Assembly (NCBI GenBank): GCA_030248215.1
Contig: JASANG010001107.1
Span: forward strand, 1 to 64,000
Direction of reading: 5' to 3'
Source of the DNA: Enoplolaimus lenunculus
Lineage: Eukaryota
DNA: 64,000 nt
The notes under the pieces were generated by a model that did not search any database, was not told the DNA's origin, and was given only the letters and a program-made list of their open reading frames with translations. Below, piece after piece: positions 198 to 57,400 of the stretch. Numbering within the stretch: position 1 is the stretch's first letter; every line of letters begins with the position of its first letter. Position numbers and translations under genes: made by a program.

Positions 198-29282
<29,085 letters not shown>

Positions 29283-34989: not shown

Positions 34990-35471
34990 ACATGTTTTCA
35001 GTACTAAGGGGTTTTCGTTGCGAGCAATCGGAATAAATTATTTATAATAAACCTTCAAGATCAATAATTAAATAGTTAGCTAATAGATAATTTGCATATT
35101 AGCTTAACTCATAAGCCTAAATTAGTACTTTTAAATTATTTCACTGATAACTAGGGTTACTGAAGGGTTTATGGGCGCGAGCAATTTAAATAAATTGTCT
35201 ATAAACCTCCAAAACCGATAATTGAACAGTTAGCTATTAGCTAATTTGCATATTAGCTTAACTCATAAGCCTAAATTAGGACTTTTAAATTATTTCACTG
35301 ATAACTAGGGTTACTGAAGGGTTTATGGGCGCGAGCAATTTAAATAAATTGTCTATAAACCTCCAAAACCGATAATTGAATAGTTCGCTCATAGCTAATT
35401 TACAGGGTGGAAACCGGAACTAGATTATTATGTCCGAGCTTCGCTCAACATATGTAGTTCTACTACGACCG
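34990..35471 (+). mobile_element. 5'-truncated copy of the HINE-like family
   Basis: Near-perfect 154-bp tandem duplication, then GCTTCGCTCAA and the GTAGTTCTACTAC hairpin. Confidence 0.7.
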
Positions 35472-37293: not shown

Positions 37294-38433
37294 CCAGTCG
37301 TAGTAGGACTACATTTATTGAGCGAAGCTCGAACACACGTAAGCAATTAAGGTAATATGCAAATTAGTTATTAGCTAACTATTCATTTATCGGTTTTGGA
37401 GGTTTGTAAGCAATTTGCTCGGATTCCTCGCACCCAAAAACCTCTCAGCCACCCTAATAATTATTGGAATAATTTAAAAAGTCCTAATGTTGTCTCGTCA
37501 ATTAAGCAAATATGCAAATTATGTATTAGCTAACTATTCGACAATTGCTTTTAAAGGTCTTTAGACAATTTATTCAGATTCCTCGCACCCAAAAACCCAT
37601 TATTGCTGAAATTAAATTGCTTGTAACCCTAATAATTAGAGAAACATTGTAAAAACGCCTAATTCAGGTTATCAATTATACTTATATGCAAATTATCTAT
37701 TAGCTAACTACTCAATTATCGGTTTTTCGGTTTTAGACGTTTGTAAACAATTTATTCAGATTCCTCACACCAAAAAACCTTCAGTAAACCCTAATAATTA
37801 TTGAAATAATTTAAAAAGTCCTAATTTTGTCTTGTCAATTAAGCTAATATGCAAATTAGCTATTAGCTAACTATTCAATTATCGGTTTGGGATGTTTGTA
37901 AACAATTTATTTAAATTGCTCGCACCTAAAAACCCTTTATTGCTGAAATTATATTGCTTTTAACCTTAATAATTAGTGAAATATTGTAAGAAGTCCTAAT
38001 TTAGGCTTACAAACTATGCTAATATGCAAATTATCCATAAGCTAACTACTCAATTATCAATTTTGGAGGTTTGTAAACAGTCTACGGAGATTTCTCGCAC
38101 CCAAAAACCCTTTAATGCTAAAATTAGATTGCTTCTAACTGTAATAATTACTGAAATATTGTGGAAAGTCCTAATTTAGGCATAATTAATTATGCAAATT
38201 AGCCTGTAGCTAATAAACGGCTGAAAATTTTAAAACCCCAATGCGAGGTTAACACCCTAGGATAATTGGCTTTCAAACAAAAAAAGTTTATGAAAATCAG
38301 TTCAACCGTTCCTGAGATTCTTTTCAGACGGACGGACGGACAGACGGACATCCTCCACCTTTCGACCCCCAAGTACATAACATAAAACGCTTCGCGAAAC
38401 TCCGAGCTTCGCTTGGAGTTTCGCTTCGCTCAA
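37294..38433 (-). mobile_element. DINE-1/Helentron-associated (HINE)-like rolling-circle element with internal tandem repeats
   Basis: Subterminal inverted repeats TTGAGCGAAGC / GCTTCGCTCAA, terminal hairpin GTAGTCCTACTAC, (GTCY)n tract near 38326-38350, ~6 repeats of 154-175 bp. Confidence 0.75.
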
Positions 38434-42713: not shown

Positions 42714-44249
42714 TCATGTTTTTGCTCCAGAGCTCGCCGGAACTGACACTACAGCTTTTCCCATTACACACTCCAACGCTCCTGCAGTTTCTGCCATTAA
42801 TGCAAGCTGGTTTGCCTCTTTATAAACGCGATTCGACAACTTTTCCAACAACGCTAATATGCCAGGAGAGCTGTAGGCCTCGTGTTGATAAATATCAACA
42901 AAAACACCTGCAATATCAACAATGAAATGTGTAAACCGCTGACAACTGAGATATTTTATCAAAAACGCGACAAATTGTTTAAGCTGCGGAGGACTTCGCC
43001 CGGCAAGCGCTTTGCGAAGCGCTCCACGTCGTTGTAGTTCACGAATTAGAGACAATGTCACTTGGGGGCGTTTGTTGATAAAATACGGTGTCAGGGCTGC
43101 GTCTAAAGCCTTAGAGTACTGAAATGACTTCAAATATCGATCGTATCTCGGCAATTTTTCTTGCGGTTTAGATTGTACTACAACATCAGATTGTACGTAC
43201 GCCTCTTTAGCTAGACGATATTTATAACTGATATCGCGCTTTGCCGACTTCTCTTTTGAGGCAACATCGCTATCAACCGTCCTCCGTTGAATAGATATCA
43301 GCTTATCAGCCATTGCCGCAACAACGTACAAATCATCTGGCGAAACAGCAAAATCCAAAATAGGTGCTGGAAAGTCCAAACTACTCACTACCCCGTACGT
43401 TGTGAGATCATGGATTTTCACATGTTTGTCAAGTCCACCCGACAGCAAGCGCTTGTTACCGGTGGCAAACGCCAAACTAGTGATCGTTTTATGATGACAG
43501 CTTAACTGAATCAATTGACGCCCTCCTCCCACGCAATCCCATACTCTCACCACTGTACCACCAGCTGTTGCGAACATCGTATCATTTGGATACATCAAAA
43601 CTGACTCAACGGGACATCCGTGATCGACCGTCGCAACAGACGTTCCTGATCTTCGGTCCCACAGCTTTGCAGTGCCATCATACGACCCGGATAGCACCAA
43701 ATCTCCATTAGTTTCCCCAACAGCGCCAGCACGAACATAATCTATGTGTTCTTCGAATGTGTCCAAGCTCTCTTCGGCTGCGATATCGAACGTCCGTACA
43801 CGATGATCATCGCCAAACGACGCGACTATGTGCGTATTATGTGCAACACTGAATCGTGTCACGTGACACGCACGTGGTGCGTGCGCTCGAAATACACGAA
43901 GTTGACTTTTGGTCGCACAAGAAAATACACGAACAACGCCGTCGCCCCCTCCGGTGGCAAGGAGTTGCCCGTCACGCCGCAATGCCACACCCATTGCTGT
44001 GTCCCGCAGTGGTTTTCCAACACGTTTTGAGACGCAACCGGTGGATGGGTTATAAATGTTGATGTGTGCTGAACAAGCAACCGCGAATAAATACGGTGTT
44101 TGATTGCACATTGATACGGAATCAATATGACCAGTCTCTTGAATGGTTATAGGAAACGAGTACCGTTTCCAGTATAATTCATCTGAGGTCAACGTGTCGC
44201 CGGTGCGAAACTTAGGAGCGTGAATAATTTGAGTACGTTTAAAATCCAT
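42714..44249 (-). CDS. UTP15: U3 snoRNA-associated protein 15 homolog (WD40 repeats plus helical C-terminal domain), intronless, 511 aa
   Basis: ATG at 44249; WD40 repeats with UTP15-typical HIDYVRAG, SGSYDGTAKLWD, DHGCPVESVL, HHKTITSL, SGGLDKHVK; C-terminal YSKALDAAL and ELQRRGALRKALAGR. Confidence 0.9.
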   Translation of the reverse strand: MDFKRTQIIHAPKFRTGDTLTSDELYWKRYSFPITIQETGHIDSVSMCNQTPYLFAVACSAHINIYNPSTGCVSKRVGKPLRDTAMGVALRRDGQLLATGGGDGVVRVFSCATKSQLRVFRAHAPRACHVTRFSVAHNTHIVASFGDDHRVRTFDIAAEESLDTFEEHIDYVRAGAVGETNGDLVLSGSYDGTAKLWDRRSGTSVATVDHGCPVESVLMYPNDTMFATAGGTVVRVWDCVGGGRQLIQLSCHHKTITSLAFATGNKRLLSGGLDKHVKIHDLTTYGVVSSLDFPAPILDFAVSPDDLYVVAAMADKLISIQRRTVDSDVASKEKSAKRDISYKYRLAKEAYVQSDVVVQSKPQEKLPRYDRYLKSFQYSKALDAALTPYFINKRPQVTLSLIRELQRRGALRKALAGRSPPQLKQFVAFLIKYLSCQRFTHFIVDIAGVFVDIYQHEAYSSPGILALLEKLSNRVYKEANQLALMAETAGALECVMGKAVVSVPASSGAKT

Positions 44250-46473
44250 AGCTTTAAATAACAAGTCCAATGTAGTATGCTTTGCTGTAACAATAAACAA
44301 TGCAAATTTTCACGTCTACAAACAAACCTTTCAAAATCACGTCAAACAAAATAGATTCTATTGCATTCAACACCAATCTCTAAAATTTAAAACAATGACG
44401 CATATTAATGCAAACTTGCAGACAGGTCTCGGGCCCAAACATACTTTCCAATATACAACATAATCCAATTTTTAAACATTGATTTTTCTTAAAATTTCCA
44501 AATTTCTACATAACGAAATGTATACTTAGCTTTGAAACCAGGACTTAATTTTGGCATTGGCTTCAAATCACGAAAATCTTTTCTTAAATGACTCTCACAT
44601 ATGAGTGTCAGGGTACAACCGTAGGCCATTCTGTGGTTCCGGTAGAAAATCGACCTCCTGCTACGAGAGAACTTGATAAAATTGTTCCTGTTCTTAGACA
44701 ATGCCCTTAAGTAAGTTTGTGTCTGATGTGTTTTCAAAAGGTTTATATAGTTGTCAAACATTCTCAAAAAGGTAACTTAACATGTTTTTGGCACGTTTTA
44801 CAGCTTTAGTCTAATTTTTCTGGAGGGAAAAACACTAAGCTAGTAATCTTGGAGGAGGGGCGAAATATCAATTAAGGAAAGGCCAAATTAAAGACTAAAC
44901 GAAGGTTTAGTGTAATATGTCCGGTAGGAACCATACCAAGCTAGTAGATTTTCTGTAGACGAAATCCCAATAGGGAAAATTAAACTATAACACCAATAGT
45001 AAAACTTTTCTAAAATTTGTGATAACTATTTCATTGACAAGTATGTTTCACCTTCGGCAAGTCAACGTCTGGCTCCAATCTTTTCACTTCCAATCGCACC
45101 TTGCAGCACAGACTAACCACTGCCATTTAACAGCAGATATTCACGACACACAAGTATTAGAACTGCAACTTAACTCATTAGCATTCGCAACCTAATACAC
45201 GGCTTACAGTTGAGCTGCTACTAATCATATAAACGCAAACCATAAAAAGTTTACTGACCACGAATAAATCAAACGTATCCCACAAACACTGAATACGCAC
45301 TATTTAACCCAGTAAAATACGTTCAGAATTCACACTGCGCACCAGGGAACTTACCACTTCATTCGCGTACTAGTTTCTAATATTATAAACCGCTTTTGCT
45401 ACATAATAAAACAAAACGACGATGCTAAACATTCAATAGTTTTCAATAAACAAATCTAACAGCACTACGTCAGAAGCTGTGATACCAAAACACGTCTCCA
45501 ACCAATTCACATTGTAACTAGGCTCATTCACATTTTTTGACCGCATCGAACACATTTAGCCACTGCGTAATTTGTTTCAGCGCATGCAATGTATTTTTGC
45601 TGGTTTTTACATAACTTAATCGTTCATCATACTTCCAGGGTATGTTGACTTTATGCTCCATAAAATTTGGAAACGAAAATCGTTGAATCGCTAATTGACG
45701 TAGATCTTTACCGCAGTTTCAAACTGTCCAAATCTAGTTCGTTCTTAAATTATTTATGATATACGGTCAGTTACAAACATCTATAATGCGCCGAATATTA
45801 CATAATATCTGTATGCTGAAAACAAGAAACTATGTACCTACAAATGCGATATGTGATTTGTCAAATTGAATTAAAAACCTCCAAACAATTAATTTCTATC
45901 TACTAAATATATGATCAACCTCATCAACCTATAATAAATACCTTTAGCCAATATACCAATGAAACTGGGGATGCGCCGATTAATCGGCATCGGTAATAAT
46001 CGGCACTTTTCGTGAATATTGGCATCGGCACTGTTAAAAACATTTCCGATTGTTCTGTTGGAATGCTGTCAATTTCATTTCTGGGCGCATATCAGTGTGT
46101 GGTGGAAAAACTGTTACACCTCTTGCGTTTGAAAAAATTAATTGAAATCAGTGTGCCTGGTCAGAAAAACTGTTATCTCTCTTGCGTTTGTGTTTGAAAA
46201 AATTAGCTGAAATAAACTTTTCTTATAAAAATATAATCGTTTTTATGATGGTTCGGGTTTAAGTCTTCAAATAATGATGTAATGTAGTATTCTATCTGTT
46301 TATTAAGCATGTTGTACCAAAGTTGGAATCGGATTCGGTATCGGCAAAAATTTTGGCAACGGCACATTCCAAAATAAAAAATATAATAAAATACAACCCA
46401 TGACAAGACAATAATACTAAACTAAACCAAACTAACTAGACAGCGGTAGTAACGACTACACTTGACAAATACT

Positions 46474-49336: not shown

Positions 49337-49581
49337 TGTTGGTATACGTGATGTAGCAAGTGTATGTGCATAGTGTATTTAATGTAAGACATGCACATAG
49401 TACTAGAGATAAATATAATATCGATCGCGTGGTGTAATGGGTAGCGCGCTAGACTGGCGAACGAGAGGTCCGAGGTTCGATTCCCGGCATGACCATATGT
49501 TTCCAAAAATTTAAGGAGAAAAACCAAGTATATTCGCAGTACTTCTAGAAAAGGGGTCGTCGCGACCGTGCAGTGATGACA
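49337..49581 (+). mobile_element. family C tRNA-containing solo LTR
   Basis: TGTTGG...TGACA ends, tRNA-like 49423-49495 with A/B boxes, homologous to 62441-62690, which is preceded by a PPT; no clean TSD. Confidence 0.75.
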
Positions 49582-50239
49582 CGACCTTCACACACTTGAG
49601 TGAAGGCTCTACCATGTGATAAGTTTGTGATAAGTTGGGTAGGCTAGGGTACGACGGTTTTTAGATATGAGTTCTCATCAGCTGAAAATGAGGAACGCTC
49701 CCAGCAGGTTCCGAGCTCGGTCGACAGATTATCAGTCCAGCGCGCTATCCACTGAGCCACGCCGCCTCACAATCAACTGCTGAGTTTTTCCTGTTTTTAT
49801 GCCTTATAAGAACCTCAACTTTGTACACATGTATCTTGGTTCTTCCATGTTTTACTGCTGCTGCATATGAAGGCACTACATATGCAGTAGTGATTTTTAC
49901 CGATGTACAGCATCAGCATGAGGTTATTACTTGTCTCTATGCATCCGCATGTCACATCCCCCGGTTTTCTACAAGGTCGTCCCTTGACCGCCAACTTATG
50001 TTTTTGGTTCTACCGCGGCAGTTTGCCATTGCGGTGCCATCGTGGTCACCATGTGATAAGTTGGGCAGGCTAGGGTACGACGGTTTTAGTTCTGAGTTCT
50101 CAGCAGCTGAAAATGAGGGACGTGCCCAGGATGTTTCGAACTCGGTTGACAGATGATCAGTCCAGCGCGCTATCCACTGAGCCACGCTGCCTCACAATCA
50201 ACTGTTGAGTTTTTCTGTTTTTATGCCTTACAAGAACCT

Positions 50240-51439
50240 TGTCGGGTGGGGCCCCAGTGTGCACTCTGTGTCACACTGGTGCTCACCCTCGGCGTCCCTT
50301 GAGCTCCTAGCTATGTCATTCCTTTGACATGCAATCCCCCCAGTCTCGGTCTCGGTTTGGTATCGCGATTTATACATAACCGGTGTAATTTTACCTTGCC
50401 ATATTGCCTGCTCATTTGTCAAACACTGTGCTTTAACATGCTTGCCAAATTCTTATAAAACTTACTGTCTTTTCTGTCAATTTCGCTTATGTCAGTTACG
50501 TGTATTTTTACATATATTTCTTATTATGTTTTCAGGTACTAAAACCCCATTTTCTGACCAAATTCTATGCGCTCAGTTCATTGCGCATTCCCATTTCTAC
50601 AAATTCTTTCCCCTTTGACCCTTTTGTGCCAGTTCCCACATATCATATTTCTTGTGCTCTTATAAATGCTTATTTTCACGTTTTCAGGCGTCTCCTTCCC
50701 GTTTCCTACTAATTTTCAGGTGCTCATTCCATTTCGCACCTCCATTTCTGCCAATTCTGCCCCATTTGTGTCTTATTTGTCATAATTCTTTTTATGTCGG
50801 GATTATGATGATTCATTCATTCCGGAGTATTCTTATGATCACTTAGCTACTGTTTTGTGCGTAGCTGACGTAGTTTTACGTGTAAAAGATAGCAACATTT
50901 TCGGACGGATAAAAAGTATTATTTCTAGCCTTGACGGAGCGTTTAAAAGCATTAATTCGGAATCGGCGTATTTTGTTTGAACGGAATAATAATTTTCAGG
51001 CCTGGGGAACTGTTAGTTGCAATTTTCGTAATTTGTGTGTTATTGTTATAATTGTGCCCGGACGTGGTTTGGTTAGCAGTCCCGTAAGCTGTGTCTGACA
51101 GAATCTGCTTCTTTTTCGCGTATTTATTACATTTTCCCGCAACTTATAATTGTCGTAAAGCTTTTCGGCCGCATGGCCCTCGTTCAAAAGCAATAATCAC
51201 CAAAACTAGGGAAAATCGGTAATTAGTTTTAAACGGGACTAACGGGCTTGTGTTTACTATTTTGCGTTGCGCCTTTCTTAGTTGTTAGTAAAACGGATAA
51301 AACGTGTGTTATAAACCCGTACGAGCCATAGGAGTGTCTAAACTTGTGTTGAAACTGTTCCAGGATCAACCCGAAACTAGACCATACCCGCCTTCGGATC
51401 GGTCGAAAATTCCCGTTTTTGACCAGTCCAGACCTTACA
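50240..51439 (+). repeat. gypsy 5' LTR
   Basis: TG...CA, direct repeat of 59523-61310. Confidence 0.95.
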
Positions 51440-51454
51440 TGGTGACCACGACGG
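51440..51454 (+). promoter_or_regulatory. primer-binding site, tRNA-Trp-like
   Basis: TGGTGACCACGACGG immediately after the LTR; resembles the canonical Trp PBS TGGTGACCCCGACG. Confidence 0.8.
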
Positions 51455-51591
51455 TTGGTTTCTATGTTGATTTTGGACAGATTACATCGATCTCGAACAC
51501 ATTTTGGTTCGTTTTGTTCTTATTGACACTACCAACACATACTAAAGTCAACATCCGGTAAGTATCTGTTTTTGTTAATTAACCTCTCACT

Positions 51592-53590
51592 ATGATGTTA
51601 CACAGCCCGAAAAAGCGAAGTACACGCAATTCTGTCCTAGGTCGTACAGCATCTGAATCTGAGATTGATGAAATTACTGAGCATCAACCAGTTCAGGATA
51701 TTTTTGCCGAGCCATACACACAAAAATTTGACAATCCGGCTCTAGAAGCATCATGTACGACTATGAATGACACTCTTGCACAAAATAATAGCACACAGCT
51801 GCAAACAGTGCAAAATAATGTGTTAAAAGATATTCAAACAGTACAGGATAACGTTCAAGCAGTCAAACGTGACGTACTACGCGATGTCCAAACAGTACAA
51901 CACGAAGTTTTGACAATTCGCGAAGATGTGTTGACAGACGTACAATCAGTTCGCCATGATGTACAATCTGTTAGAACACAAGTTGAACAAGTGGAACACA
52001 CATTCGCTGAACAACTACAAACAGTTCAAAACGATTTACAAGGTACCTGTCGTAATATTGAAGACCGCCTTTACGGTGAAATTCAGGTGACTGACCAAAA
52101 CTTGCAAAAATTATCTACAGACTTTAACGCAAGTTAAACAGCGCCTAGCATATTGCGAAAACGCTCAAACAAACGTACAAACACCTATTCCAACTGATTT
52201 TACAACTCCAATTAATACAGGTGTTAAACAGGTACCCACGTCAACACCACGTCACAATGTTGCAAAAAACGCACATTTCGACTGCGATGACGACAACGAT
52301 TCGGAAATTGACGACACGAACCAACCACAACAGCGTGCTAACGCGTCAAATGTCAACACAAACGCAGCGGCGCATGTGCCGAATCCATATCCAGCACCAA
52401 TGCCGCCGATTATCGTTCACGCTGTCACAAAAGAATCACTGTCGATCAAACCGTACAATGGTTCAACAGATTTTGACAAATGGTTCAAAAAATTCAATCG
52501 ACAGCTTGACGAGCACAACATCAAAAACGACGACGAAAAATGGAAATGGTTCAAAAATAAAATCGAGGAAGATTCTCCAGCCGAGAACTATTGGCAATAC
52601 ATCGAGAATCCACATCGTCAATTCACCGCGCTCGATTATCACTCAGTCGTCAAATATTTCGAACAACTTCACACAACACGTCCAGAACACCAAGCCAAAG
52701 CACCCAAACAAGCGACAACACACGCAAGAACCACGCAAGAAAACAACCAACCACAAAAACAAAACAACCCACAAATATTCCACAAATTGACTGCTGGCAC
52801 TGACTAATCGTTCCATGATTTGAAGATTCGTGCAGCAAAAATCGAACAAATGCTGAATCTGCGAAATGAGCTATCTCCAGATCGCGACCAGCAGAGGTCG
52901 AAATTTGATAACAGGCAGAACGATCAAAACTCGCAGCGTCGAAACAATCAATACAATGCTTACAATCAGAAACAGCAACAGAATTCGCCTCAACGCAGTC
53001 AGCAACAGAGCCAGCCAGCAAAGCAAACAATCGAATTTTCGCCAAAATTACAATGCGAAAACAACGAATGGAAATTCGTCGAGCACACAAAATCAGTCAA
53101 GACAAGACCTGATCTGCAGAAACTGTGGCAAGCAGGGACATATGTCTTACAATTGCCGTAGCATTCAACAGCATGCATCGCCACAGAGTGACATTCGTGT
53201 TCGACATAGGTCAGGCCCGCCGAGTGGCCAAATTCCAGATTCAAACTATGAGCCACGTCCACTTATACCGACATGCACTCATTGCAAGAAGCGTGGACAT
53301 ACGGCTAGCGACTGCTGGTTCCGCAATGATAATATTGCAAGCCAAAATTTCAGTCAAACAAACTATGGCGGCGCAGTTCAGGCTCAAAGACACTTATCAA
53401 GCCTGTCGCAACACCAACTACTGCCGTTGTTAGCCAACCACAGGCTCAACAACCATTATCAAATACGCCTTTACGTAGTAATAACAACAATACAGCAGCG
53501 CAAACTGAATCTGCGCAAGTCAACATACGTCAACAACCAATTCCGACACAACAACCAGTTGCTGCACCTCCAGTCATCTCAACTGCTTGG
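51592..53590 (+). pseudogene. gag: gag, split over several frames
   Basis: N-terminal coiled-coil repeats, IKPYNGSTDFDKWFKKF, two CCHC knuckles (CRNCGKQGHMSYNC, CTHCKKRGHTASDC); frame breaks near 52140, 52800 and 53400-53590. Confidence 0.8.
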
Positions 53591-53593
53591 GGT

Positions 53594-54166
53594 GTGCGCA
53601 AAACTGGCCAACCGGCCTTGGCAGCCTTGACGCCAGCTGGTTTTAAACCACATACTAGTACATCTGTTGACGCAATATGTCATTTTACTAGCAAAGCGTC
53701 CAGATTCTTTATTGAGGCTGAGATCGATGACTACACAATTGTAGGTTTAGTTGACACAGGTGCTGAATTAACACTCATGCGTGATGATGTGTTTGCACAG
53801 TGTTTCGCACATCATGAAATTGACACTAAGGATATTATCGATTGCTATGGTTTCGCTGATAATGGTTCTATACCATCCTTAGGTTCAGTATCTCTCCATG
53901 TTAAGATTGGTCAAGTAATTGCACCAATTAAGATACATGTTGTTAAAGGTATTAATAATACTGTTATGTTTGGAGATGATGCTTTACGTATTTTCAGGTT
54001 AACAATCGATTACTTCAATATGAACGTTCGCTATCGCAACGAAGTCATTCCATCTTGGGCTTGGTCGTCTCCACTTGACACCGAGGCGGAGATCGCAACC
54101 AAGTGGGCACAAGTCTGCGAAATCGTTCAACCGGTTCAAATACCCCACCACAACAAAAACTACTAA
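53594..54166 (+). CDS. retropepsin aspartic protease, out of frame with RT
   Basis: LVDTGAELTLM active site and VMFGDDAL motif. Confidence 0.88.
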   Translation: MRKTGQPALAALTPAGFKPHTSTSVDAICHFTSKASRFFIEAEIDDYTIVGLVDTGAELTLMRDDVFAQCFAHHEIDTKDIIDCYGFADNGSIPSLGSVSLHVKIGQVIAPIKIHVVKGINNTVMFGDDALRIFRLTIDYFNMNVRYRNEVIPSWAWSSPLDTEAEIATKWAQVCEIVQPVQIPHHNKNY

Positions 54167-54436
54167 AAACCCCAGAACCAACGAACAAAAAACCAAGAAA
54201 ACAAAAACCCCAACACCCCCCCCCCCCATGGGTAGAGTGTCAGAAGACGTCGACGCTAGCGAAGTCATTCTCGATCGCGAAACAGCATTACAACATGTCG
54301 AATCACTGTCAACCGTTGATCAAATCAATCAAAACGACAACAAACCATCTGTCGAAATCGCAAATGTCAATCGACACGATAAACGTCAACAACGTGCTGA
54401 GCAAGTCACTCGTTTTGTCAGTCATTAAAACATCAG

Positions 54437-57400
54437 TTGCAACAAACATCCGACGTCGACTTGCCAGAAAAACTTAACTTTGACGATACTGATCTCAACG
54501 AATTTGAGAGACAATTGCTAAAGCTCATGTTGCACAACAATCGTGACTTGTTTGCACAACCAAATAAGCAAATTAATCATACCAGCCTTGACGTGAAACA
54601 TAAAATTAACATCGAACCACATGAACCAATTCAACAACGTATCTATCGAGTACCGTTTGGAAAACGTGAAACACTCAGCAAAAGTATCAGAGAAATGCTT
54701 GACCAAGGCGTAATTCGTCCATCAAAAAGCCCTTGGGCATTTCAGGTTGTCTTGGCGAAGAAAAAAGATGGAACCGACCGTGTCTGTATCGATTATCGAC
54801 CACTAAATGCTATCACAAAGAAAGATCGGTTTCCATTACCACGCATTGACGAAACTCTTGATGCGTTGAATGGCGCAAAATATTTCTCAACTATCGATCT
54901 GCGATCTGGCTATTGGCAAGTGCCAATGGATGAGGCAGACATTGAGAAGACAGCCTTCATCTGTCACGAAGGTCTGTTCGAATTCACGTCGATGCCATTT
55001 GGACATTGCAATGCTCCAGCAACATTTCAGCGCATGATGCAAATGACTCTTTCAGGTTTGCTCATGGAGTTCTGTTTGTGTTATCTTGACGACGTGATCA
55101 TATATTCGCCAACAATCTGGGATCACTATTATGACATCAACCAAGTGTTTCAGCGACTACGCGAAGCTGGTCTTAAGATCAAACCCAGCAAGTGTGACTT
55201 TGCGAAAAAGAAATTATTATTTTTAGGTCATCAAATATCTGAAGACGGTATAGCGCCAAATCCTGAAAAGGTTAAGGCAATTTTAGAGAGCCCAGTACCA
55301 AAGACGGTCACTGATGTCCGTGCTTTTTTAGGTCTCACCGGCTATTATCGTCAGTTCATCAAAGACTACAGCACAATCGCAAGTCCACTTTACAATTTAA
55401 CACACGGTAAGCTTAAGAAAGTCCAATTAAAAGAACGCTGGACTATAGACTGTCAAAACGCATTCGATACATTAAAACGACATCTCACTGAAGCACCAAT
55501 ACTAGCGTATCCGGACTTTACCAAGCCGTTTATTCTATATACTGATGCCAGCGATACTGGATTAGGTTATATATTAGCTCAAAAAAGCCTTGACGGTAGA
55601 GAGCGTGTGTTGTGCTATGGCAGTCGTAAATTAACAGACGCCGAAACGCGTTATGCGATCACTGAAAAAGAGTGTCTCGCTGTTGTGAAAGCACTAACAC
55701 AATTTCGTCCATATTTGCTTGGCAATTATACAACAATTATAACTGATCATTCGGCTTTGGTTCAAATACTTGACAAACGACGTTCACTCAATTTATTGAC
55801 AACAAGATTGGCCAAATTTGCATTACGAATTCAAGAATATGACTACGAAATTGTTTATCGAAAAGGACTGAATCATACAAATGCTGATGCATTATCGCGA
55901 CCACCAATATTACCAGATGAACCGTCTGAAATTAATGATGAACCATTAGATATGGAAAGCAAAGCTCAACAATCAGCTTTGTCTATTGCTCGTGCACGTG
56001 ATAGATATATAGCCGCTCATATCGACGCTGTAGAACGCAGTGATCATACATATGTTCGCGGTCCGGCTGCATTACCACCAAACGTGGTACAGCCTCCAGC
56101 ACAAGGAAATTTTGTGTTGGTTGATAATAATTCAGTAGGGTGCATTGACGCCGAAAGAGCGGACAGCGCTGCTACTGGTGAAAATATTGCAGGGTGCCTT
56201 GACGCCGAAAGAGGGGAAGACACTACTGCTGGAAATAATAATAATATAAATAATAATAATAATAATCGCGTGCAACGACAACAACAAGGTTTAAATGTCT
56301 ATATGGAACATTTTTCGACGGTATCACCATGGGATAAAACTCAATTGGTCGACGCACAGCGTCATGACGATAAACTTAAAAAACTGATTCAGTATCTTGA
56401 AACACAAGAAATGCCAGAAGGCATCGATCGCATCGAAAAACGATGGATCTTAGATCATGAACCATATTATGTCATATTCGATGAAGTCTTGTTTCATATC
56501 GCAAGACCAACGCGTCCAGCAACAATTGACTTTGCCGAATTGCAAGTCGTTGTTCCTGAAAACTTGCGCCTACCGTTGCTTGAACAGTATCATAGTACCA
56601 AGTACGGTGGTCATGTAGGTGCTAAGAAAGTATTTTGTAAGTTGACGCGTAAGTTTTATTGGCCAAACTGTATGAAAGACATTTCAGATTTTATAGAGAC
56701 ATGTATTCCGTGTTCTCGTTTTCGACAAGGTCCAAATCGCAAAGGACCATTACAACCAATTCAGCCAATTTTTCCGTTTCACATGATCGGAATCGATTTT
56801 GTAGGTCCATTGGCTGAAACACCATCTGGAAATAAATATATACTATGTGTCGTTGACTATTTCACAAAATGGGCAGAAGCGTACGCAACGCCAGATCAAA
56901 CTGCCTTGACGGTAATAAATATCATCATAAATGAGTGGATCCCAAGACATGGCGTTCCACGCATTATATTGTCTGACCAGGGATCAGCGTTTATTTCAGA
57001 GCTATTTAAATCTGAATTGACGGAAATCGGAACGCGTATTGCATATTCAGCGCCTTATCACCATCAGGCAAACGGTTTAGTTGAGCGCTGGAACCAAACA
57101 TTAGTTCGTATTCTCCGTCCGCTGTCCGAACAGTACGGTTCAGCGTGGGATACATTGCTTAACGCTGCGTTGTTTGCATATCGCACAATTCCGCATGCAA
57201 CAACAGGTCAAACACCTTATTTTATGGTACACGGACGCGATCCCAATATTCCTGGTGAAAACCAAATATATCCGGTACAGACAAAAGTTACACAGGACAC
57301 ATACGCTTCGCAGTTATTTGAGGAATTAACTCGCGCATGGGCTGAGGCTGCGTATCACATCGAACAAGCACAAATGAATTATAAATATTATTTTGACAGG

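Follow-up and report, generated by a model that had tools for sequence, protein, structure and literature searches.

The window, that is, the whole stretch of 64,000 nucleotides of Enoplolaimus lenunculus DNA that was analysed, contains three nested elements that hold the site of interest: TRIM B, a Gypsy element inserted inside the 5' LTR of B, and TRIM A, which lies inside the 3' LTR of the Gypsy (Table 1). Between LTRs of about 1.2 kb (1161 identities, 37 mismatches), the Gypsy carries protease, RT, RNase H and integrase in the order expected of an autonomous Ty3/Gypsy element, and its pol region, 54401-57877, gave Pfam matches to RT, RNase H, integrase and a PHD finger. The gag-protease region is broken across several frames, such that this copy is probably not active. 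Both TRIM A and TRIM B are shorter than 1 kb and have two LTRs (TG...CA), a non-coding interior, a primer site and a purine tract; B measures about 700 bases once the Gypsy insertion is subtracted, its 5' end being incomplete. The target-site duplication of TRIM A is of 5 bp, with the empty site present in the Gypsy's 5' LTR, and that of a solo LTR of family B is also of 5 bp, whereas the ends of the full B element have decayed. Judging solely by look-alike primer sites, we take the primers to be proline-like for TRIM A and tryptophan- or arginine-like for TRIM B. Beyond the 3' end of TRIM B (49606-49636), the last 10 bases of the LTR are repeated together with a few bases resembling the start of a primer site, which may be what is left of a tandem array.

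Table 1. Coordinates of the nested elements and of their parts in the window.
Feature	Position	Strand	Remarks
TRIM B 3' LTR	49627..49956	-	330 bases; tRNA-like box A/box B stretch at about 49695-49766
TRIM B interior	49957..50051	-	95 bases; primer site, hairpin 1, linker, hairpin 2, purine tract
Hairpin 2, TRIM B	49975..49989	-	AAGGGAC loop on a 4-bp stem; loop end 22 bases ahead of the 3' LTR
Hairpin 1, TRIM B	50012..50035	-	5-bp stem, 3-base 5' bulge, 4-bp stem, 3-base loop; from interior base 17
TRIM B primer-binding site	50037..50051	-	identical to that of the Gypsy at 14 of 15 bases
TRIM B 5' LTR, inner piece	50052..50239	-	LTR split by the Gypsy insertion
Gypsy element	50240..61308	+	inserted in TRIM B; 5-bp target duplication AACCT
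Gypsy primer-binding site	51440..51454	+	compared with that of TRIM B
Hairpin 2, Gypsy	59488..59506	+	6-bp stem; same loop and same 22-base distance
TRIM A	60572..61154	+	583 bases; in the Gypsy's 3' LTR; 5-bp target duplication GTTAG
TRIM A LTRs	60572-60809, 60917-61154	+	229 identities, 8 mismatches
TRIM A 5' LTR tRNA-like stretch	60680..60753	+	box A at about 60687-60697, box B at about 60730-60740, then TTTT
TRIM A interior	60810-60916	+	between its LTRs
Hairpin 1, TRIM A	60826..60849	+	from interior base 17
Hairpin 2, TRIM A	60884..60898	+	same as B at 15 of 15 bases; varies least within the interior of family A
TRIM B 5' LTR, outer piece	61314..61393 (start about 61314)	-	without the first bases TGT
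Solo LTR, family B	62722..62986	+	5-bp target duplication TCCGA

A third family with a tRNA in its LTR (family C) is present at 62441-63152 (-) and 49338-49579 (+), with Rfam tRNA matches at 49423-49495, 62524-62596 and 62997-63073. Its two copies at 62.4-63.2 kb resemble the LTRs of a single TRIM with an interior reduced to about 22 bases that ends in a purine tract, and the solo B LTR is inserted in that family C TRIM. Elsewhere the window contains a UTP15-like intronless gene at 42714-44309 (-), whose best matches are insect proteins at 41-42% and point to animal DNA, a stretch at 21907-22281 (-) that we presume to be a kinesin-like exon, a satellite-like dispersed repeat of 155-177 bases found in both orientations (20096-20570, 35040-35404 and 37343-38413), and a 12/24-base tandem array at 24912-25305.

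The box A/box B stretches in the LTRs of A and B led us to place both elements among the Helenus-like TRIMs. By eye, YGG and GGTTC can be read in TRIM A, where TRGCY departs by a single mismatch, and TRIM B has box A and a variant of box B. Neither ARAGORN nor Rfam made a call on the tRNA-like stretch in the LTR of A or B; that of B aligns with the Rfam-positive tRNA-like repeat at 49423-49495, and 1 of 200 shuffles aligned as well. Helenus (TRIMp3) is described, in the part of PMC10886601 available to us, as having tRNA-derived LTR sequence in which TRGCY and YGG mark box A and GGTTC marks box B, and its members resemble A and B in being shorter than 1 kb and non-coding, with two LTRs, a primer site and a purine tract, and, by eye, in the tRNA-like box A/box B of the LTRs. 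Judged from their sequence and from what that part describes, TRIM A and TRIM B appear Helenus-like in the sense of PMC10886601, barring the target duplications: those of animal Helenus are given there as 4 bp, whereas TRIM A and the solo B LTR have 5 bp, as do fungal and plant Helenus and Ajax. According to the same part of that source, the animal Helenus families are thought to depend on Gypsy, and transcription from the LTR by RNA polymerase III is untested for the published Helenus also. A TTTT run follows the tRNA-like stretch in the LTRs of both A and B and might end a polymerase III transcript ahead of the interior. After this run both LTRs have CAGCTG (60754-60764 in A, 49679-49689 in B), though they are otherwise unalignable.

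The LTRs of A and B aligned with a score of 23, which 12 of 200 shuffles reached and which is thus at chance level, and the interiors aligned end to end with a score of 63, reached by none of 200 shuffles. On this alignment, the two interiors are related along their whole length. Their primer sites are identical at 9 of 16 positions, and the linker has a 12-base gap in addition to its differences. Hairpin 1 begins 16 bases past the start of the primer site in both elements and preserves all 9 pairs, of which seven are invariant, one has changed on one side (U-G to C-G) and one on both (G-C to C-G); the unpaired bases of bulge and loop are conserved to the same degree as the stem. Between the families it is conserved above the linker, A and B sharing 21 of 24 bases in the hairpin and 10 of 22 aligned positions in the linker (Fisher p 0.004, for blocks picked after inspection). 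The preliminary description had claimed that the same fold follows the primer site in the two TRIMs despite their differing LTRs and primer sites, and the claim holds: both 24-mers read as written, the LTRs do not align and the primer sites differ. It had placed the copy of A exactly (60826-60849, +) and one end of B at about 50011 on the minus strand, one base off the true 50012.

For 29-mers around hairpin 1, the stability z-scores were -1.6 in A and -2.3 in B. In TRIM A, the predicted pair probabilities are high with the primer site either free or held unpaired. In TRIM B, hairpin 1 does not appear in the minimum-energy fold of the naked interior, in which a competing hairpin over the primer site is predicted to win, and its pair probabilities are 0.07-0.27 in the interior and 0.57-0.91 in a longer context. 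With bases 1-15 of the B interior held unpaired, the pairs are predicted to form with probabilities of 0.91-1.0, the loop-closing pair with about 0.65. Rfam covariance models gave no match over either TRIM interior at E up to 1.

Covariation in hairpin 1 is weak, consisting of one double change between two sequences. Under a null of random substitutions, three changes kept all pairs and included a double change in 1.7-2.7% of trials, a figure that carries no correction for the hairpin having been chosen; given just two sequences, a shuffle control (253 of 500) says nothing either way. Variants within family A were drawn from public contigs of three runs, representing at most two samples and one study, and the frequencies are depth-weighted and unphased. 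At 60836, T>C accounts for 26-50% of depth, which makes the U-G/C-G change a polymorphism inside family A, and in the loop 60840 C>T (AAC to AAT) stands at 29-34%. The two commonest variants of hairpin 1 in this family are pairing-neutral, yet about two thirds of the possible transitions in the hairpin would be so, and the two therefore prove little. Rarer is 60826 A>G (A-U to G-U) at 1-4%. At the putatively covarying pair, 60827 G>A reaches 1.4-5.2% against 0.4-1.2% for the partner C>T, and is thus a stem-breaking change without a matching partner frequency. Run X1 gave a summed variant depth per base of 3.5% for hairpin 1, 1.2% for the linker and 0.14% for hairpin 2. Common variants in family A thus respect the fold of hairpin 1, yet conservation of the block does not exceed that of the flank. 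Of the covariation originally proposed, the G-C to C-G double change is real and the wobble change is variation within family A; likewise, conservation above the flanks appears between the families and is reversed within A, where hairpin 1 varies more than the linker. Loose ends of run X3 at 60807-60846 carry what we take to be a cDNA template-switch adapter, so that this run may be cDNA, though it is listed as 'DNA?'; these ends were left out of the evidence.

The fold had been read at the outset as a selected RNA structure such as a packaging or dimerisation signal, and autonomous LTR elements had been suggested as a place to look for it. Neither the window's Gypsy nor any of 89 other loci contains the motif; with up to 3 mismatches allowed, its pattern had no match in the 703,824 bases that loci L012-L107 comprise, and it had none in viral contigs, where a single-protein scan found no match either. 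Eleven matches to the pattern in metagenome contigs were rejected as chance, since all of them have neither an LTR nor the second block and most are GC-rich. A covariance model built on the two sequences and run over 90 sources returned its own two inputs and one weak site in the window (E 0.41), and over five further assemblies one weak match (E 0.08) outside any LTR context. By eye, no structure common to the region after the primer site was seen in 20 Gypsy families or in the window's Gypsy. As hairpin 1 was found in none of these places, we know of no helper that carries it, and the packaging or dimerisation role stays unproven. The true helper of TRIM A may be another Gypsy family. Packaging found no direct support, and we consider it doubtful that hairpin 1 is specifically a packaging signal.

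We nevertheless think it fairly probable that hairpin 1 is a selected structure. Its conservation above the linker between A and B, its constant distance from the primer site and its predicted closing in B when the primer site is held unpaired speak for this part of the earlier proposal, and the variability within family A and the thin covariation speak against it. The main alternative is shared ancestry without selection on structure, either because an LTR was swapped onto one recent interior or because the block was kept as a protein or DNA site on which the fold is incidental. The single double change, the unpaired bases being as conserved as the stem, the variation of family A in hairpin 1 above that in the linker, the modest z-scores and the equal stability of TRIM B's hairpin 1 on the opposite strand would all agree with it. 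Nonetheless, A and B have drifted far apart in linker and primer site but not in the two hairpin blocks, a pattern not to be expected from a recent LTR swap, and pairing survives all three differences in hairpin 1, so that we regard ancestry without structural selection as unlikely.

Two other readings concern what the block might derive from or do. Hairpin 1 could go back to a tRNA D-arm/box A, as a relic or a mimic that template switching carried over from the LTR tRNA-like stretch, and as such may be an internal polymerase III element or pair with the D-loop of the primer tRNA. The primer site and hairpin 1 of A together align to the 5' half of A's LTR tRNA-like stretch with a score of 26 (0 of 1000 shuffles), and hairpin 1 of A alone with a score of 22 (2 of 1000), 24 comparisons having been made; this likeness keeps a D-arm origin in consideration. 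In the available part of PMC5371799, moreover, yeast Ty3 RNA is described as contacting the D arm of its primer. Against this, any primer site resembles the 5' strand of a tRNA by construction, the B version aligns to no LTR (461 of 1000 shuffles against A's LTR), a box B at the right distance is missing, and A and B keep the block despite their different primers, all of which makes the derivation quite unlikely in our estimation. Dimerisation, with hairpin 1 opening so that two RNA copies pair as an extended duplex, appears very unlikely: the predicted homodimers of both A and B lie 4.3 kcal/mol below two monomers and the 3' stem strand of B's hairpin contains a 6-base palindrome, but any hairpin can make such a duplex and A does not keep the palindrome. 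The earlier suggestion of a dimerisation signal also fits the loop poorly, as AAC (AAT in about 30% of family-A depth) has 3 bases that are not self-complementary, and hairpin 1 would be unable to kiss.

Unlike hairpin 1, hairpin 2 is common to the TRIMs and to the window's Gypsy. The sequence AAGGGAC occurs four times on both strands of the 64 kb, and three of these occurrences are the loops in A, B and the Gypsy, each flanked by a stem and located 22 bases from the LTR. Between the Gypsy and the TRIMs, both sides have changed in two of the four positionally shared stem pairs. In the window copies, the predicted probability of hairpin 2 with its 7-base loop is at most 0.04 in the isolated interiors, at most 0.18 in a longer context of A and at most 0.02 for each of the three copies in 100-base contexts, as other pairings take up CAAGG. 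The Gypsy LTR has at 50292-50303 an exact 9-base complement of the stretch around the hairpin 2 loop; long-range pairing of the two looked suggestive against dinucleotide shuffles, of which 8 of 300 did as well, but was rejected, since 22 of 200 did so in a second test and other families do not conserve it. Pairing of the loop with the start of the LTR is not conserved either, being found in 1 of 13 families at the level of 1 in 200 shuffles.

We then surveyed other Gypsy loci with a pol alignment, mostly apparent host DNA within symbiont assemblies. From 89 loci, 33 had flanking repeats, 27 of these a usable LTR start, and 23 families resulted; 56 loci without a flanking repeat, 6 of the 33 without a usable LTR start, 4 near-duplicates and the 7 weak loci L023-L029 were left out. 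The rule, set after the window examples, the published TRIMs and the survey loci had been inspected, asked for at least 4 pairs, a purine-rich loop of 5-7 bases that ends in GR(C/T), and a position 18-30 bases ahead of the LTR. Such a hairpin is present in 14 of the 23 families and missing in nine; 30 of 1104 shifted windows had one, as did 120 of 4600 shuffles. Leaving out L016, likely a chance match on a contig-end repeat, the count is 13 of 22. The distance to the LTR is 23-25 bases in 12 of the 14, the loops are mostly GGGAC, GAGGAC or GAGGGC, and stem pairs 2-4 include all four Watson-Crick types among 16 hairpins that had been selected for pairing. The predicted probability of the hairpin is at least 0.85 in 7 of 13 other Gypsy families. 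Many prokaryote assemblies (L030-L107) hold complete Gypsy elements with LTRs, so these assemblies likely include host animal DNA.

Published TRIMs of the Helenus type were inspected by eye for the same hairpin, within the part of PMC10886601 available to us. In its Data S1 part 5, 17 of 30 animal Helenus interiors have hairpin 2, 14 of them without a stem mismatch, and by host the counts are 13 of 13 in oysters, 2 of 2 in coelacanth, 2 of 2 in sturgeon and paddlefish, 0 of 1 in the ctenophore and 0 of 12 in the carp/zebrafish type. Many further Helenus interiors in parts 6-9 have it and many do not, and both Ajax interiors carry it (PMC10886601). The carp/zebrafish-type interiors, of 43 bases and without hairpin 2, show by eye about 13 bases complementary to the start of their own LTR in a Sirevirus-like manner (PMC10886601, Data S1 part 5). 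We hold it very probable that hairpin 2 is a selected structure in Gypsy elements, and as a cis signal it is better supported than hairpin 1.

Taking both blocks together, we lean slightly towards the explanation that hairpin 1 and hairpin 2 of the TRIM interiors serve as RNA signals for proteins supplied by a helper Gypsy. The TRIM RNA would then retain only what a Gypsy particle needs. Annealing of the primer tRNA would let hairpin 1 close beside the primer site, likely aiding primer loading or the capture of the RNA by Gag; in B, hairpin 1 is predicted to compete with the hairpin over the primer site and to win once the primer tRNA sits there. After strand transfer, reverse transcriptase would copy the purine tract and reach hairpin 2 about 16-18 bases past the junction of tract and LTR. 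We infer that hairpin 2 may be a general Gypsy signal acting in plus-strand primer formation, to which its fixed spacing points, or in RNA capture by Gag or reverse transcriptase, its conserved loop pointing to protein recognition. Hairpin 1 would be a lineage-specific 5' helper of primer loading and packaging, and probably not a dimerisation loop. Self-priming by the LTR tRNA-like stretch, for which 6 pairs were seen by eye, was discarded. A wider proposal, which we offer tentatively and rate somewhat short of an even chance, is that a Gypsy-wide RNA hairpin, its loop of GRGGAC type and its place 22-25 bases ahead of the 3' LTR, is the recognition signal by which TRIMs whose LTRs are unrelated take over Gypsy particles, that hairpin 1 is a primer-triggered switch of this lineage, and that the two together form the minimal cis set of a polymerase III-driven retroelement.

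With its 15-20 bases, conserved loop and fixed distance to the purine tract, hairpin 2 is a precise target for mutation. It also offers a means to pair TRIMs with their Gypsy helpers and a cheap landmark for annotating the boundaries of 3' LTRs. Hairpin 1 by itself would be a modest detail at the level of the family. How the dependence of TRIMs on a helper is maintained is stated as not known in the available part of PMC10886601 (Kojima, 2024).

Neither structured cis signals of LTR elements nor hairpins inside TRIMs are new in kind. For hairpin 2 as a Gypsy-wide motif, we found no description in the full-text literature, a search with most subscription journals and Repbase Reports outside its scope, and its presence in Gypsy elements may have been noticed previously. 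No such hairpin is found in the available parts of PMC13570524, PMC10085805, PMC3532108, PMC3350952 and PMC4918200. Interior hairpins are not mentioned in the available part of the Helenus paper, and an exact-motif search of the Helenus set published there found neither block letter for letter; in five of the oyster families a stem-loop comparable to hairpin 1, its 5' bulge rich in A, can be made out by eye behind the primer site (PMC10886601). The packaging signal (psi) of LTR retroelements is expected in TRIM interiors, conserved only as structure, and TRIM packaging signals are described as hard to find for that reason, as far as the available part of the ta-TRIM paper goes (PMC4558846). 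Compared with psi as presented there, hairpin 1 is missing from the candidate helper, which does share hairpin 2.

Hairpin 2 is most like the inverted repeat of Sireviruses in being a precisely placed structure by the terminal purine tract, proposed in their case to aid RNase H in plus-strand primer formation. It differs in that the right arm of the Sirevirus repeat is within the LTR and the purine tract in its loop, whereas hairpin 2 is wholly upstream, has a conserved purine loop and belongs to Gypsy-type elements. The interiors of biv-TRIMs and the conserved hairpin site of GalEa, compared by their description in the available part of PMC6934838, share with our elements conserved inverted repeats and a conserved segment, which ends there in AAAGGAC. 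The biv-TRIM hairpins are proposed in that part to replace a missing primer site, whereas TRIM A and TRIM B have canonical primer sites (PMC6934838).
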